From positions 8,393 through 72,392 of the forward strand of contig CAYOUG010000003.1 of the NCBI GenBank assembly GCA_964407105.1: a stretch of 64,000 bases of DNA. Direction: 5' to 3'. Under the pieces are notes generated by a model. The model searched no databases. It was not told where the DNA came from and saw only the letters and a program-made list of their open reading frames with translations. Positions 20,341 to 63,840 of this stretch are shown piece after piece. Every line of letters begins with the position of its first letter. The stretch's first letter is position 1. The translations under genes and the position numbers were made by a program. The DNA comes from an uncultured Candidatus Saccharibacteria bacterium. Lineage in GTDB: Bacteria; Patescibacteriota; Minisyncoccia; Phycocordibacterales; CALRHW01.

Positions 20341-20898
20341 TCAAGCCACTGTCACCGCCACCGTCTTTGCACTCGACCGTTTGGTCAAGTTTAAAGAAAT
20401 TGGATCTGGTTGCCACTGATCCGGCAAGTTTCTTGCTTTTCTCGCCAGAGCGTCATCCTTACCAAGAAGGTGTCGAATAACAGCGACCATTGGTGGATCA
20501 CCGGTCTTCCAACTATTAACATCGCCGTTGACAACGATGTCGACGCGCTGATTCTTGTACATCTCCCCAGCTTCGGTTGGTGCACCGTTCGCGCTCTGGC
20601 GAAAAGCGAATCGGCCACACACCGATACCCAAGCTTCTTCCTGAGCAATTCGACGGTCCCGAGGTTTGTCCACCAAACCAAACACCGACGAATTCAGATT
20701 TGCGGGCCTAACCTCCACTCCGTGAAAAACAGTAGGACGAGGCACCTCAACTTCCTCCACTGGGAGTTCGGCGTTCTTTTTGCCAGACTTCTTTCTGTGG
20801 TACTCCGCTCGTGCACGAGCCCCCATTACTGCTCTCTCGTACTCGGTCTGCGCAAACTGTTGTGCAAAAGACAAACCGGATAAATTACGACTGGTCAC
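20341..20898 (-). CDS. Orphan hypothetical protein on a G+C-rich islet, with a GTG start. An alternative ATG start lies at 20826 (MGARARAEY).
   Basis: A 185-aa open frame spans a roughly 0.65-kb block that is far more G+C-rich than its flanks. I see no recognisable domain. A candidate SD (GGTGGTG) lies 6 nt before the GTG. A promoter-like TTGCGT-N17-TACATT lies upstream. Confidence 0.5.
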   Translation of the reverse strand: MTSRNLSGLSFAQQFAQTEYERAVMGARARAEYHRKKSGKKNAELPVEEVEVPRPTVFHGVEVRPANLNSSVFGLVDKPRDRRIAQEEAWVSVCGRFAFRQSANGAPTEAGEMYKNQRVDIVVNGDVNSWKTGDPPMVAVIRHLLGKDDALARKARNLPDQWQPDPISLNLTKRSSAKTVAVTVA

Positions 20899-36891: not shown

Positions 36892-37003
36892 CAAAACAAA
36901 AACAATACTTTTTCCGGGTACGGAATTTTTGAAGCTTAAAAATTCCTGAAACTCTCGCGCCGTCGCGCTCGAGACCTCCTCCAAAAGTATTGTTTTTGTT
37001 TTG
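36892..37003. repeat. Perfect 21-bp inverted repeat (CAAAACAAAAACAATACTTTT / AAAAGTATTGTTTTTGTTTTG) enclosing a 70-nt G+C-rich spacer that has its own internal hairpins.
   Basis: The arms are at 36892-36912 and 36983-37003. The spacer contains GGAATTTTT-GAAGCTT-AAAAATTCC. The right arm begins 13 nt beyond the lysS stop codon. Confidence 0.6.
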
Positions 37004-41844: not shown

Positions 41845-42892
41845 GAATAATAAGTACCTCTTTAAAACCCTCCAAGTCTTCTAAAATCATACCTGTACCA
41901 CGAGCTACAGCAGTAAGAGGATCTTCCGCAATATATACAGGAATTTTAATATATTCATGAAGCAAAGCATCAAGACCCTTTATAAGTGCACCTCCACCGG
42001 TCAAATAAAGACCTCGATGCATTACGTCAGCAAGAATTTCTGGAGGGGTCGTTTCAAGAACTTCGCGCACCGATTCTACAAGTGTGTCTATAGACTGTGA
42101 AATAGCTTCGCGAATATCTGCATCAGTAATTACAACCTCTTTTGGAAGACCAGTAATAAGATCTCGTCCTTTAATAATTGCCTCCATAGGTACATCCCCA
42201 GGAATTACCGAACCAATCGCGATTTTTACACTCTCTGCGGTTTTTTCACCAATTAAAATTTTAAATTCACTACGAATATAAGAAATTATATCGCTATTAA
42301 GTTTGTCTCCTGCGATTCGCAAATTTTTTGAACACACCACACCCCCAAGAGAAATGACAGCGATGTCTGAGGTGCCTCCACCGATATCTAAAACCATACT
42401 TCCCACCGGATCCATCACCGGCAAACGAATACCAATAGCCGCCGCCACTGGCTCCTCTACAATATGCACCTCGCGAGCGCCAGCATTTTTTGTAGCATCA
42501 CGCACTGCACGTATTTCAACACTTGTAATACCAGACGGCACTCCCACCACAACGCGAGGACCAAAAAAAGTTCGGGTGTCTTTTTGCGCTTGATTTAATA
42601 AATACGCGATCATTTCTTCGGTTATTTCAAAATCAGAAATAACACCGTCAACTAAGGGACGCACCGCTACAATATGTCCAGGCGTACGACCAAGCATTTG
42701 TTTTGCTTGATTGCCTATCGCCACAACACGCCCAGTTTTTTGATTAACCGCAACCACAGATGGTTCATTGAGCACGACACCTCTACCCTTCATATAAACA
42801 AGAGTATTTGCCGTACCCAAATCAATTCCAATATCGTTGGAAAAGAGTGTATAGAATCTTTCTATCTTTTTTTTCAGTCGTGACAGCCACAT
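41816..42892 (-). CDS. mreB: Rod shape-determining protein MreB (actin-like ATPase).
   Basis: The phosphate-1 motif GIDLGTANTLVY and other actin-fold motifs are present. Confidence 0.9.
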   Translation of the reverse strand: MWLSRLKKKIERFYTLFSNDIGIDLGTANTLVYMKGRGVVLNEPSVVAVNQKTGRVVAIGNQAKQMLGRTPGHIVAVRPLVDGVISDFEITEEMIAYLLNQAQKDTRTFFGPRVVVGVPSGITSVEIRAVRDATKNAGAREVHIVEEPVAAAIGIRLPVMDPVGSMVLDIGGGTSDIAVISLGGVVCSKNLRIAGDKLNSDIISYIRSEFKILIGEKTAESVKIAIGSVIPGDVPMEAIIKGRDLITGLPKEVVITDADIREAISQSIDTLVESVREVLETTPPEILADVMHRGLYLTGGGALIKGLDALLHEYIKIPVYIAEDPLTAVARGTGMILEDLEGFKEVLIIHEDELPTSK

Positions 42893-48372: not shown

Positions 48373-49386
48373 TTACCTTTTTGCAATAATAGTCTTTTTG
48401 TAAACGTCCAAATGTTCAAGAGCAATTCCAGTACCTTTTGCTACACAAAAAAGAGCGTCATCGGCAAGTTTTGCCTTCACACCCGTGCGACGATAAATAA
48501 GGTCTGGTAAATTGCGAAGCTGAGAAGATCCACCCGTCATAATAATGCCGTTGTCGATAATATCTGAGGCAAGCTCTGGTGGAGTATCCTGAAACACATC
48601 TTTAATTGCTTTTACAATTTCCCGAAGCTCTTTGTTTATTGCTTTTACAATTTCGTTTGTTTTAATTTCAATAGAACGAGGAAGGCCGGTGACGAAGTCA
48701 CGACCCTTAATAGTAACTGAGAGTTCCTCATCAAGCGGAATCGCTGAACCCACTTTTATTTTTATATCCTCAGCGGTTTTATCTCCAATACCAAGATTAA
48801 ATTGTTTTTTAATATAATCAGTAATCGCATAATCAATTTTATTGCCAGCGCATTTTACAGAAGTAGCTGCCACAATTCCGCCAAGAGAAATTACTGCCAC
48901 GTCTGTAGTACCACCACCAATATCTACAACCATATGCCCGAGTGCTTCTTGAATAGAAATGCCAGCACCAATAGCTGCGAGAATTGGTTCTTTCACCACG
49001 TACGCATTTTTTGCACCAGCACGTATCGCGGCCTCCACCACCGCACGACGCTCAGTAGATGTCACACCAGCAGGTACAGACACAAGCACTTCGGGTTTAA
49101 TAAGATTCCACTTTCCAAGCGCTTTGTTTATATAGTATCGAAGCATCGCTTCGGTTACGCGATAATCTGCAATCACCCCGTCTTTCATAGGACGATATGC
49201 AATGATGTTGTCTGGAGTGCGACCGATCATTGCTTTTGCTTCCAAACCAATCGCCATAATTTTATTGTCTTCCTCAGACACCGCCACCACAGACGGCTCG
49301 TTTAGCACAATTCCCTTACCCGGCACAAATACGAGCGTGCTTGTGGTGCCCAAATCAATTCCAAGTTTTTTTGAAAAAAATGCCAT
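48373..49386 (-). CDS. Second MreB/Mbl-family actin-like protein, a stand-alone paralogue.
   Basis: GIDLGTTSTLVFV and a full actin-fold motif set are present, in a 337-aa ORF. It is not linked to mreC or mreD. Confidence 0.85.
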   Translation of the reverse strand: MAFFSKKLGIDLGTTSTLVFVPGKGIVLNEPSVVAVSEEDNKIMAIGLEAKAMIGRTPDNIIAYRPMKDGVIADYRVTEAMLRYYINKALGKWNLIKPEVLVSVPAGVTSTERRAVVEAAIRAGAKNAYVVKEPILAAIGAGISIQEALGHMVVDIGGGTTDVAVISLGGIVAATSVKCAGNKIDYAITDYIKKQFNLGIGDKTAEDIKIKVGSAIPLDEELSVTIKGRDFVTGLPRSIEIKTNEIVKAINKELREIVKAIKDVFQDTPPELASDIIDNGIIMTGGSSQLRNLPDLIYRRTGVKAKLADDALFCVAKGTGIALEHLDVYKKTIIAKR

Positions 49387-49434
49387 AGTGATGGCACTAT
49401 CATAAGGGTTTTAATGGAGTTTTACAAATATATA

Positions 49435-49468
49435 GAAAAGAAAAAGCCGCACCTTTTTAAAGCGCGGC
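49435..49468 (-). terminator. Intrinsic terminator for the G+C-rich islet gene (GCCGCGC...GTGCGGC followed by TTTTTCTTTTC on the minus strand).
   Basis: A 6/7-bp G+C stem with a T-rich tail on the minus strand, 30 nt after the stop at 49498. Confidence 0.5.
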
Positions 49469-49497
49469 AAAATGAGTACGGAAACCAGTGTCAGTAG

Positions 49498-50022
49498 TCA
49501 GAGTAAACGACGGTTTGAGAAGTCTGTTCCTTCGTAACGCTCGAGAGAAACTTCTTCGGCATCATGAAGCCTTCTCCTGGACACATCGATATATCTCAAG
49601 GGCCCATCGACCAAATAAGTCCACATGGCAAGATAGCCACATCTCTCAATCACGAAGGTGCTCAGAGGAGAGCCATCAGTGGGAAACCAAACATTGCCTT
49701 GAGGCAAACTGTTTTGGATTTGTCGACAAAGAACTTTTCCAGAGAATGGTGCGACAATCCCATGCCTGTTGCCATCAAGCACATACTGACCGTGAATATC
49801 AGTCCAAACCTCTTTCACAAAACAACCACCAATTTCCCAGAAGAAACTCCTCGCCTTACGATCAGACTTAACAGTAAGATCTATGAAATCGATTCGTTTT
49901 CCAAGAACAATCTCGATAACTCGACGAGACGCCTCAATAGCAGCAGTTGCAGACGACACAATTTCAACTTTCGGCATTTCTATCTCCTGTCTCAGGAAAT
50001 CATGAGGAACAATTTCACTCAT
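49498..50022 (-). CDS. Orphan hypothetical protein on a G+C-rich islet. The start was chosen at MSEIVPHD; the six-frame ORF extends to 50079 and is partly G+C-poor.
   Basis: It is G+C-rich, starting at about 174 aa and open for 193 codons. A consensus promoter (TTGACA-N17-TATTAT) places the transcription start near 50044, and a GGTGG lies just upstream of the ATG at 50022. I see no recognisable domain. Confidence 0.5.
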   Translation of the reverse strand: MSEIVPHDFLRQEIEMPKVEIVSSATAAIEASRRVIEIVLGKRIDFIDLTVKSDRKARSFFWEIGGCFVKEVWTDIHGQYVLDGNRHGIVAPFSGKVLCRQIQNSLPQGNVWFPTDGSPLSTFVIERCGYLAMWTYLVDGPLRYIDVSRRRLHDAEEVSLERYEGTDFSNRRLL

Positions 50023-50050
50023 GGCCACCGTCACAGTGGCATTAAAAATA

Positions 50051-50079
50051 ATAATACAGTATAAAATTATATTTGTCAA
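50051..50079 (-). promoter_or_regulatory. Near-consensus sigma-70 promoter on the minus strand, TTGACA-N17-TATTAT with TG adjacent.
   Basis: The minus strand reads TTGACAaatataattttatacTGTATTAT. It drives the islet ORF 49498..50022. Confidence 0.5.
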
Positions 50080-50087
50080 AATTAGAA

Positions 50088-50196
50088 AATCTCAAAACCA
50101 TGTTGAGAAAAGCATCGCGCAGGGGCGACGGCCCCGAGCGTAGCAGCAATCGCAACAGCGATTGACGCGTGGTTTTCGAAACACGGTTTTGAGATT
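50088..50196. repeat. A 15-bp imperfect inverted repeat (AATCTCAAAACCATG / CACGGTTTTGAGATT, one mismatch) bracketing a 79-nt G+C-rich segment between two divergent promoters.
   Basis: The arms are at 50088-50102 and 50182-50196. The interior contains GGGGC-GACG-GCCCC and ATCGC-AACA-GCGAT hairpins. It could be a MITE-like element or an operator for the adjacent XRE-HTH protein. Confidence 0.45.
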
Positions 50197-50203
50197 GACA
50201 ACA

Positions 50204-50231
50204 TTGAACAACATAGCACATATGCTATACT
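50204..50231 (+). promoter_or_regulatory. Promoter TTGAAC-N16-TATACT placed 6 nt upstream of the HTH-murA ATG, implying a leaderless mRNA.
   Basis: The plus strand reads TTGAAC-aacatagcacatatgc-TATACT-ttcctc-ATG. An additional TTGACA lies at 50195-50200. Confidence 0.4.
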
Positions 50232-50237
50232 TTCCTC

Positions 50238-51749
50238 ATGTCTACATCATCAAACCCACTCGCCAAACTTATTGCCAATCTTCGTGAGGAAAGAGGAATT
50301 ACTCAAGAACAATTTGCCAAAAAACTTGGCACCACACAAAGCGCCATTGCTCGCATTGAAAAAGGAGAGCAAAACCTTACCACCGAAATGATCGCAAAGA
50401 TTAGTGAAGCGCTCAATCATGATATTGTTCAACTTTCTACTGGAGCTATAAACATAGAAATAGAGGGTGGCAAAAAACTATCTGGAGAAATTATTACAAA
50501 AACTTCAAAAAATGGCGCAATGGGAATTCTTTGTGCTTCCCTTCTAAATAAAAACACCACCCTCATAAAAAATGTTCCAAAAATAGAAGAGGTGCATCGT
50601 ATGATAGAAGTACTACAAAGTATTGGTGTACATGTATTATGGCGAGGTAATGATTTAGAAATCGCACCCCCAGAAAAACTTTCACTTGAAAAAATCGACA
50701 TTGCTGCTGCAGAAAAAACCCGAAGCATTATCATGCTTATTGGGCCACTCATTCACCTCCTCTCTTCATTTTCACTACCCCAGCCGGGTGGATGCAAACT
50801 CGGCTCACGCACAGTACGCCCACATTTTTTTGCCCTTGAAAAACTTGGTGTAAAAATAAAAACAACATCAGAACACTACGAAGTAAAAGTACCAAAACTT
50901 AAAGCAAACGAAATTGTACTTTACGAAAGTGGAGACACGGTAACAGAAAACGTACTTATGGCAGCGGCGCGCATAGACGGTGTGACCACCATTAAATTTG
51001 CTTCAGCCAATTACATGGGGCAAGAGCTTTGTTTTTTTCTTGAAAAACTTGGCGTAAAAGTAGAAGGTATAGGCACCACAACACTTGTCGTGCATGGAAA
51101 AAAAGATATCGATGTGCCGGTTACATATTATTTAAGTGAAGATCCTATCGAATCAATGTTTTTCATTACGGTAGCTATTGTTACCAATTCTTCTATTACC
51201 ATCAAACGTTGCCCTATCGACTTTTTAGAAATCGAACTTTTGAAGCTTGAAAAAATGGGATTTAAATATAAAATTTTAAAAAAATACAAAGCAGAAAATG
51301 GTCATACAAATCTTGTAGATATAAAAACAGCGCCTTCAAAACTCACAGCACTCGAAGAAAAAATAGAATGCCGACCATACCCCGGTCTAAATATAGACAA
51401 CCTTCCTTTTTTTGCAGTTATTGCAACCCAAACAAAAGGTACCACATTTATTCATGATTGGGTTTATGAAAAACGTGCGGTGCACTACAAAGAACTCGAC
51501 AAACTTGGAGCTGATACACTTCTTGCCGATCCACACCGCATGTATATCACCGGTCCCACCAAACTTAAGCCAGCAGAAGTGATATGTCCACCCGCCCTTC
51601 GTCCTGCCGCAATCATTCTTATAGGCATGCTTGGTGCTCAAGGTCGTTCGGTTTTACGCAATATTTACAGTATTAATCGAGGTTATGAAGATATTATTGT
51701 GCGTCTAAATAGTATTGGTGCAAAAATAAAAATATTGCGAGAGTTGTAA
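50238..51749 (+). CDS. murA: Fusion protein made of an N-terminal XRE-family helix-turn-helix domain joined to UDP-N-acetylglucosamine 1-carboxyvinyltransferase (MurA).
   Basis: Residues about 1-70 are LIANLREERGITQEQFAKKLGTTQSAIARIEKGEQNLTTEMIAKISEALN (HTH_XRE). Residues about 75-503 are a full-length EPSP-synthase-fold MurA (…KLSGEIITKTSKNGAMGILCASLL…GGCKLGSRTVRPHFFALEKLGVK…). Confidence 0.8.
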   Translation: MSTSSNPLAKLIANLREERGITQEQFAKKLGTTQSAIARIEKGEQNLTTEMIAKISEALNHDIVQLSTGAINIEIEGGKKLSGEIITKTSKNGAMGILCASLLNKNTTLIKNVPKIEEVHRMIEVLQSIGVHVLWRGNDLEIAPPEKLSLEKIDIAAAEKTRSIIMLIGPLIHLLSSFSLPQPGGCKLGSRTVRPHFFALEKLGVKIKTTSEHYEVKVPKLKANEIVLYESGDTVTENVLMAAARIDGVTTIKFASANYMGQELCFFLEKLGVKVEGIGTTTLVVHGKKDIDVPVTYYLSEDPIESMFFITVAIVTNSSITIKRCPIDFLEIELLKLEKMGFKYKILKKYKAENGHTNLVDIKTAPSKLTALEEKIECRPYPGLNIDNLPFFAVIATQTKGTTFIHDWVYEKRAVHYKELDKLGADTLLADPHRMYITGPTKLKPAEVICPPALRPAAIILIGMLGAQGRSVLRNIYSINRGYEDIIVRLNSIGAKIKILREL

Positions 51750-63123: not shown

Positions 63124-63738
63124 TTAGGCGGCGACCAGTGCACAGCCGAACTTCGGCGCGCTCAGCATCTCGCAGAGCTCCGGCGGAAATTCATACGACC
63201 CGCTGCTCGTCATGCCGATCGAGGTCGAAACACCATCAATGGCCATCGGACCTCTGCCACGAAGCATCTCGCCCCGCATACCATTGTTGCTGTCGCGAGT
63301 CTGCGGATTGTCGTAGAAGCTGAGCACGAACTCCACAATAACCGAGAAGAAGAACTTGTACTCCTCATTCGTGAGCTCGACAATCGTGTTGCCACGCTTC
63401 ACCGTGATCTGAAAGAGGCGCTGGACCTCGCTATCGTCCTTGGTCAGCGGTAAGCTGTCAAGTTGGTTGATCGGAAATCCAAACACCAACTCATAGTCGA
63501 AACTGGTGCCGGCGACCTTGACATGGCCCTTGTAGCGGACACCGTCTTGAACCTGCTCGACGTACTGTTCAATCGAGATTTTTCTCGTTTTGATCTTGGG
63601 CTTCTTCTTGGTCTTCTTCTTGGGCTTCTCGACGGTCTCCATGTCACGGTTGTAATTCGCCAACATGTCATCCGTCGACTGCCCCCGATCATCGGGGGTA
63701 CAATCGCACATCACTCGACCACAGATTGGGCAAGGCAT
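63124..63738 (-). CDS. Orphan hypothetical protein with an N-terminal zinc-ribbon-like CxxC...CxC motif, on a G+C-rich islet next to tRNA-Asn. The start was chosen at MPCPICG; the six-frame ORF extends to a GTG at 63792.
   Basis: An SD, AAGGAGA, lies 6 nt upstream of the ATG at 63738. The product is MPCPICGRVMCDC followed by a Lys-rich linker (KKKTKKKPKIKTRK) and a roughly 150-aa domain I do not recognise. A sampled 60 nt is about 68% G+C. Confidence 0.55.
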   Translation of the reverse strand: MPCPICGRVMCDCTPDDRGQSTDDMLANYNRDMETVEKPKKKTKKKPKIKTRKISIEQYVEQVQDGVRYKGHVKVAGTSFDYELVFGFPINQLDSLPLTKDDSEVQRLFQITVKRGNTIVELTNEEYKFFFSVIVEFVLSFYDNPQTRDSNNGMRGEMLRGRGPMAIDGVSTSIGMTSSGSYEFPPELCEMLSAPKFGCALVAA

Positions 63739-63811: not shown

Positions 63812-63840
63812 ATTATACACCTAAATGATATAATTGTCAA
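63812..63840 (-). promoter_or_regulatory. Perfect-consensus sigma-70 promoter TTGACA-N17-TATAAT on the minus strand.
   Basis: The minus strand reads TTGACAattatatcatttaggtgTATAAT. It sits about 65 nt upstream of the islet ORF start. Confidence 0.6.

Follow-up and report, generated by a model that had tools for sequence, protein, structure and literature searches.

The segment described here lies between an mreB gene and a murA gene in the genome of an uncultured Candidatus Saccharibacteria bacterium (GenBank assembly GCA_964407105.1, contig CAYOUG010000003.1). We analysed 64,000 nucleotides (nt) of this contig, referred to below as the window. The two genes point away from each other: mreB occupies 48373-49386 on the minus strand (Pfam MreB_Mbl, E = 5e-132), and murA, at 50238-51749 on the plus strand, encodes a 503-amino-acid (aa) protein in which an XRE-type helix-turn-helix (HTH) domain is fused to MurA (HTH_3 and EPSP_synthase by Pfam, MurA by NCBIfam). 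A second mreB paralogue, 44% identical to the first, is located at 41849-42847(-). The 851 nt between mreB and the fusion gene hold three things that concern us: a small open reading frame (ORF) with its own promoter and terminator, a structured hairpin element, and a palindrome at the murA promoter.

The ORF (49498-50022, minus strand) encodes 174 aa when read from its ATG. Upstream of it is the promoter TTGACA-17-TATTAT (50079..50051(-), 11/12 match), overlapped by a second, TTGAGA-18-TATAAT (50095..50066(-), also 11/12). Four sigma-70-like matches of at least 11/12 were found in the window, compared with 2.1 ± 1.3 in simulated sequence, and two of the four are these ORF promoters. Thirty nt past the ORF stop codon lies an intrinsic terminator (49446-49468(-), with a T-run to 49436). 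Its stem of 10 base pairs (bp), six of them G-C, has the form GCCGCGC...GTGCGGC and is followed by TTTTTCTTTT. This terminator would shield the mreB promoter from read-through. The mreB promoter itself, TTGTAA-17-TATGAT (49399..49427(-)), was found by promoter scan, and the same block occurs in L004-L008 (L numbers designate loci fetched for comparison); being conserved in relatives, it marks the left edge of the inserted DNA. Its -10 ends 12 nt before the ATG at 49386, implying a leader of ~5 nt, and near-leaderless initiation may be common in the host genome.

A first-pass annotation, made from the letters alone, had proposed the minus-strand promoter, the 174-aa ORF and the dedicated terminator as a complete transcription unit wedged between the mreB paralogue and murA and divergent from the XRE-HTH-fused MurA. 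All three features are present where it had placed them, and the arrangement as a putative transcription unit is supported in silico. The annotation had also called the cassette G+C-rich. The G+C content (GC) of the region is indeed higher than the mean of same-size windows (43.8% vs 36.9 ± 3.7%), but the excess is modest: 5% of such windows are equal or higher, and the adjacent mreB is at 42.3%.

The ORF is a true orphan. It had no match in Pfam, NCBIfam, PHROGs or PADLOC, and nothing significant among PDB sequences. A word-indexed search of 5.8 billion clustered proteins and a full HMMER scan of 1.84 billion representatives each returned the ORF itself only. Searching phages and plasmids with tblastn gave nothing significant (a single plasmid match at E = 0.5), a search of viral contigs came back empty, and nothing significant was found in 128 fetched loci, where the other ORFs that occupy the same gap in relatives have no similarity to it. 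The expectation of an ORF lacking any recognisable domain was thus borne out, and no housekeeping family emerged to which it could be assigned. The window contains a second orphan as well, a GC-rich (53%) ORF of 161 aa at 20341-20826(-), for which Pfam has no domain and the search of 5.8 billion proteins no match but the ORF itself.

The mreB/murA spacer as an insertion site

A scan of genome collections with the HTH::MurA protein returned at least 212 related loci, all of them in Patescibacteria (metagenome-assembled genomes of Parcubacteria/Paceibacteria type). Nearly all of the matches begin at residues 1-12 and hence include the HTH domain. We inspected 80 fetched loci. In most of ~65 loci, mreB and HTH-murA are divergent neighbours separated by 53-270 nt, and a distance of 90-270 nt is the norm. 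The gap measures 139 nt in L002, whose MurA is 88% identical, and 133 nt in L003, the closest relatives, compared with 851 nt in the window. None of the 80 inspected loci contains a relative of the orphan ORF; the co-occurrence of this ORF with HTH-murA fusions in other genomes, which the first-pass annotation had suggested looking for, was not seen in any of them.

Other DNA is found at this place in other relatives. In about 20 loci the gap is 350-2400 nt long and contains other ORFs, and families among these ORFs are shared by only three pairs of loci (L017/L020, L036/L039 and L043/L052), the remainder being unrelated. Six of the ten gap ORFs tested have no Pfam domain; the others include PQ-loop, PP-binding and PaaX-like proteins. 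Long hairpin or inverted-repeat inserts occupy the gap in nine loci. Since relatives have such varied, unrelated ORFs and hairpins inserted there, the stretch that separates the two back-to-back -35 boxes is a recurrent insertion site, and the cassette in the window is one lineage-specific occupant of it. The gap ORF common to L017 (3292-3798(+)) and L020 (3193-3705(+)) encodes 168-170 aa, is 73% identical between the two, has no Pfam domain and is co-directional with murA.

The orphan ORF was seen again in another sample, DRR274965 (L129); the sequencing runs SRR12487045 and DRR274965 both carry the cassette. Between 49044 and 51066, 16 positions distinguish the two sequences. The mreB part (343 nt) has 11 differences, all synonymous (3.2%), and the mreB promoter has two (49415 and 49420); the ORF with its promoter (591 nt) has none, the hairpin element one, and murA (829 nt) two. 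To the left of 49421 there are 13 differences in 377 nt and to the right 3 in 1646 nt (0.18%; Fisher p = 9e-8). This contrast puts a recombination breakpoint at the insert's left edge, and it suggests that the cassette spread recently by homologous recombination through conserved flanks.

Taken together, these observations lead us to favour, with a rough probability of 0.6, a strain-specific insertion of ~770 nt that brought an autonomous orphan-gene unit into the promoter spacer of mreB and HTH::murA. According to this model, the segment 49431-50200 was inserted between the two back-to-back promoters, in a spacer that tolerates foreign DNA and that relatives have filled with other, unrelated inserts. 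The near-consensus sigma-70-type promoter would start a monocistronic transcript near 50044-50059, which would encode a soluble protein of 159-174 aa and end at the strong terminator before reaching the mreB promoter. Upstream, the 110-nt hairpin would bound the unit, and the T-rich run behind it on the minus strand could block incoming transcription. The ORF may have been imported from a donor of roughly 45% GC, with exchange through the flanks then carrying the cassette from strain to strain. HTH::MurA would most likely repress its own promoter through the palindrome, and not the cassette.

Coding potential of the orphan ORF

We scored codon usage with frequencies trained on the long genes of the window. 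The frame of the ORF scores -0.02, compared with -0.39 to -0.86 in the other five frames and 0.33 ± 0.13 in host genes. Its GC at codon positions 1, 2 and 3 is 0.54, 0.40 and 0.39 (44.6% overall), a pattern that fits a coding sequence from a genome of ~45% GC. Relative to a stop-free null the ORF scores z = 3.0, and two plus-strand ORFs on the opposite strand, of 166 and 127 aa, show no coding signal (z = 0.27 and -0.14). As a calibration we used a conserved GC-rich ORF at 63124-63738, which scores only z = 0.33 despite 50 homologues; the codon statistic therefore cannot reject atypical genes. That ORF (54% GC, minus strand) lies behind the only 12/12 consensus promoter of the window (63840..63812(-)) and has no Pfam domain. 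Its 50 homologues, of ~155 aa, are from Patescibacteria (Moraniibacteriota, Minisyncoccia) and are annotated as hypothetical. It represents a conserved, uncharacterised family whose codon usage is very atypical.

Is the orphan ORF a gene, then? Its coding statistics and the placement of its promoter and terminator suggest that it probably is. The competing explanation is that the insert is non-functional DNA, in which the ORF and the sites resembling a promoter and a terminator are leftovers or arose by chance, and no useful protein is made. In its favour are the lack of a homologue anywhere, a weak codon-usage signal that overlaps that of shadow ORFs, and a protein model of very low confidence; the window also has the other GC-rich orphan ORF (20341-20826), and such ORFs may be by-products of foreign DNA. 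Against it is the length of the open frame: a stop-free run of 193 codons in a 770-nt insert at 44.6% GC is expected only ~5e-4 times by a composition calculation. The order GC1>GC2~GC3 and the frame-specific score likewise fit a coding sequence, two of the four best promoters of the window lie exactly upstream of the ORF and a strong terminator exactly downstream, and the sequence is identical in two samples. We therefore regard non-functional DNA as unlikely, although it is the alternative that we take most seriously.

The product could also be a structured non-coding RNA. In AT-rich genomes a GC-rich island behind a strong promoter is often an RNA gene, and the 605-nt transcript folds somewhat better than shuffled sequences (z = -2.7, from only 20 shuffles). 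However, Rfam recognises just a 23-nt hairpin that contains a Shine-Dalgarno motif, ARAGORN detects no transfer-messenger RNA, and no DNA homologous to the segment was found in the related loci. A single frame that stays open for 193 codons with a codon-position GC pattern also speaks for a protein, and we find an RNA gene scarcely credible.

Several points weigh against an autonomous gene unit gained by insertion. The codon statistic of the ORF falls within the range of shadow ORFs, which reach z = 3.85. The AlphaFold2 single-sequence model has a predicted local distance difference test score (pLDDT) of 32.6 and is uninformative. The two samples show no substitution in the ORF from which selection could be read, and no homologue speaks for a function. 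The choice of gain here over repeated loss elsewhere is made by parsimony alone. Finally, the start codon is uncertain, because the host rarely uses Shine-Dalgarno sites: a Shine-Dalgarno-like motif precedes only 6 of the 47 long genes of the window, compared with 7% of random positions. A TTG start at 50079, which would give 193 aa, precedes the predicted start of transcription. Read from an alternative ATG (49977), which has AGGAG at a distance of 6 nt before it, the ORF would have 159 aa; the Shine-Dalgarno motif of this ATG is contained in a hairpin at 49975-49997, which is the 23-nt Rfam match noted above (Mu-gpT-DE-like, sub-threshold).

If the orphan-gene unit is real, its product is perhaps a dispensable accessory or conflict-type protein, the usual kind for orphan genes in such hotspots; this is our best guess, and a tentative one. 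Taken alone, the cassette is unremarkable; of greater interest are the HTH::MurA fusion with its candidate operator and the hairpin family.

A dispersed family of structured hairpins

The first-pass annotation had also pointed to a structured element between the divergent promoters. This element (50089..50198(+)) is real, as seen from its fold, its homologues and a covariance model. It folds at -63.6 kcal/mol (z = -8.2 relative to shuffled sequences) into a long outer stem around two conserved G+C-rich hairpins. In the conserved inner core of ~62 nt, YGCGCAGGCGCG-loop-GCGCCGAGCRGAGCAG is followed by a 7-bp stem that bears an ARCA loop and by ACGCGUG. The outer arms are completely different from copy to copy and often pair perfectly over 19-36 bp. 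A-tracts and T-tracts flank the element, giving it the look of an oversized bidirectional terminator.

We scanned metagenomes with the core pattern and obtained 47 stretches, of which eight are true members by inspection, the others being chance matches in GC-rich DNA; the same pattern had no match in viral contigs. A covariance model, R1, was built from the alignment of the element. R1 scores the window element at 103.7 bits and detects a diverged second copy in the window, at 36892..37000(-) (31.3 bits, E ~2e-6), 16 nt beyond the end of the coding sequence for a class II aminoacyl-tRNA synthetase. The hairpin in the gap of L004 resembles this diverged copy. Further R1 copies lie directly after the murA stop codon in L011 (two copies) and L072, and L104 has a second copy; together with L090, there are at least three copies on one metagenomic contig of 474 kb. 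In all, the family comprises the window copies and members in L006, L008, L011, L072, L089, L090, L094, L096, L102, L104, L105 and L115. The copies are always intergenic, have no fixed orientation relative to their neighbours and are found after gene ends as well.

Across 16 aligned sequences, pairing holds in 92.4% of cells, and at 36 of 39 pairs both partners vary. The observed values were not reached in any of 500 shuffles, and slid controls gave 33-51% pairing; these figures are flattered by an alignment that had been fitted to the model. Rfam 15 contains no match for the element (the best, RtT, scores 16.4 bits vs a gathering threshold of 45), and it gave nothing consistent on five homologues. 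The counts of G-U and A-C pairs in the outer stem are roughly balanced, ~9 and 10 once two core pairs are set aside (a hand tally from a 10-sequence table), and favour neither an RNA nor a DNA role.

The copies in L006 and L008 occupy the same gap site as the window element. In the L008 homologue both inner hairpins carry compensatory changes and the outer stem is entirely different, and the L006 copy is inverted. Compared directly, L006:3803-3939 and L008:3779-3910 have unalignable arms and oppositely oriented cores in genomes that are ~91% identical over 9 kb. This argues for turnover, by replacement or re-insertion, rather than slow divergence.

Do the ORF and the hairpin form one mobile unit, with the hairpin as the attC-like or MITE-like (miniature inverted-repeat transposable element) recombination site that delivered the cassette? 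The element adjoins the cassette, belongs to a multi-copy family, occupies the very same position in the promoter gap of L004, L006 and L008, and in the last two shows the signs of turnover or mobility just described. On the other hand, L006 and L008 carry the element with no ORF at all, other gap ORFs come without the element, and no recombinase is linked to it. As an integron attC it was rejected by inspection: its stem bases are TCTCAAAACC and GGTTTTGAGA, there is no GTTRRRY core, and the ORF reads away from it. As a MITE it fails on its outer arms, which are unlike between copies, around an inner core that is conserved, whereas MITE terminal repeats are the conserved part. We consider delivery of the cassette by the hairpin quite improbable, and retain the strain-specific insertion of an orphan-gene unit.

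Two further candidates were rejected. A TIGR-array or box C/D stem-loop (PMC12045711) does not fit, as the element has no box C/D motifs and forms no array. The gap hairpins of L026, L029, L044, L045 and L052 are not members of the family; they are inverted-repeat-bounded inserts (L026:894-982, L029:3770-3913, L044:3843-3916, L045:3748-3858 and L052:3731-3883) with perfect arms of 11-16 bp and interiors of 52-121 nt, unrelated to the hairpin core.

Because it is dispersed, found after gene ends and present in both orientations, the element is not a regulatory structure specific to murA. Our working reading is a dispersed hairpin repeat that serves as a transcriptional insulator or terminator and is perhaps mobile. 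It would be bolder, and we think doubtful, to propose an undescribed class, mobile or regenerated at the DNA level, that prefers the mreB/HTH-murA gap and helps to make it a landing pad for orphan cassettes. Like REP/BIME/REPIN, ERIC, Correia and attC elements, the hairpin is multi-copy and intergenic, stands in either orientation, often after gene ends, and forms a long hairpin. Unlike MITEs, REPINs and attC sites, in which the ends are conserved, it keeps its inner core and varies its arms. To our knowledge the non-coding repertoire of Patescibacteria has been little studied, and this family, which covaries strongly and matches nothing in Rfam, is a candidate for a new element, RNA or DNA, in the group.

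The HTH::MurA fusion, its candidate operator and known systems

In the fusion protein the HTH_3 domain is recognised at E = 1e-16 (Pfam). The MurA domain is intact: it can be aligned over its whole length with solved MurA structures and retains PGGC, the motif of the active-site cysteine. The first ~70 residues, where the HTH lies, are covered by none of the matched solved MurA chains, and we found no paper that describes an HTH::MurA fusion.

The murA promoter, TTGAAC-16-TGcTATACT (50204..50231(+), by promoter scan), has an extended -10. Upstream of murA is a 16-bp perfect palindrome, ATAGCATATATGCTAT, which in the window lies at 50213..50228 (strandless, ATAGCACATATGCTAT). It overlaps the spacer and -10 of the murA promoter, its right end forming the extended -10 (TGCTATAAT or TGCTATACT), and we take it as a candidate operator. 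With up to two mismatches, the palindrome is present in 60 of the 80 loci. All 47 copies with at most one mismatch in 672 kb of loci are upstream of murA, and variant copies are altered symmetrically (ATATCATATATGATAT and ATCTCATATATGAGAT are examples). Where MurA has no HTH, in the three loci L051, L073 and L081, the palindrome has a degenerate left half-site, with 7, 4 and 3 mismatches, respectively.

The first-pass annotation had called the HTH-murA gene leaderless, which is plausible. The -10 ends 6 nt before the ATG, and a spacing of 6-8 nt is kept in about half of the loci. Because this spacing is short and kept in relatives, the murA mRNA is probably leaderless.

A regulatory role for the HTH domain had also been suggested, with the cassette or the structured element in the shared divergent region as its target. 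Divergent genes are often under the control of XRE-type regulators, and the ORF and murA promoters are only ~150 nt apart. Yet the sole operator-like palindrome overlaps murA's own -10, ~135 nt from the ORF promoter, and no second copy exists in the 64-kb window at up to three mismatches. Relatives that lack the cassette keep fusion and palindrome alike, and the element is found at unrelated loci in both orientations. With the fusion in at least 212 loci and the ORF in none of the 80 inspected, the HTH did not evolve for the cassette. Control of the cassette or element by this HTH is thus very unlikely, and the suggestion found no support. Conserved without the cassette and absent near the ORF promoter, the palindrome makes autoregulation of murA likely: to judge from the sequence pattern, the HTH domain would bind the dyad and repress its own promoter.

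This arrangement recalls PutA, BirA and NadR, bifunctional enzyme-repressors known as trigger enzymes. Like them, HTH::MurA joins a metabolic enzyme to a DNA-binding domain, here with a palindrome that overlaps its own promoter. It differs in its enzyme, MurA, with which peptidoglycan synthesis takes its first committed step, and in having a putative DNA-binding domain of XRE type. If the fusion does repress its own promoter, Paceibacteria-type Patescibacteria link transcription for the first committed peptidoglycan step to the enzyme itself.

Patescibacteria genomes are typically ~1 Mb. The mreB/HTH::murA spacer shows that even such reduced genomes keep a defined permissive site, between core promoters, where foreign genes can be added and exchanged. 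Strain-specific ORFan genes in hotspots between core genes are known from bacterial pangenomes, and the spacer resembles them: the site is bordered by core genes in synteny, the small genes found in it are different and unrelated from one lineage to the next, the inserted gene is compositionally atypical and lacks homologues, and exchange appears to proceed by homologous recombination through the flanks. Unlike those hotspots, the site here is a spacer of ~25 nt that separates two -35 boxes standing back to back, each insert is a single gene of 0.3-2 kb with no integrase or tRNA anchor, and the host genome is a reduced one.

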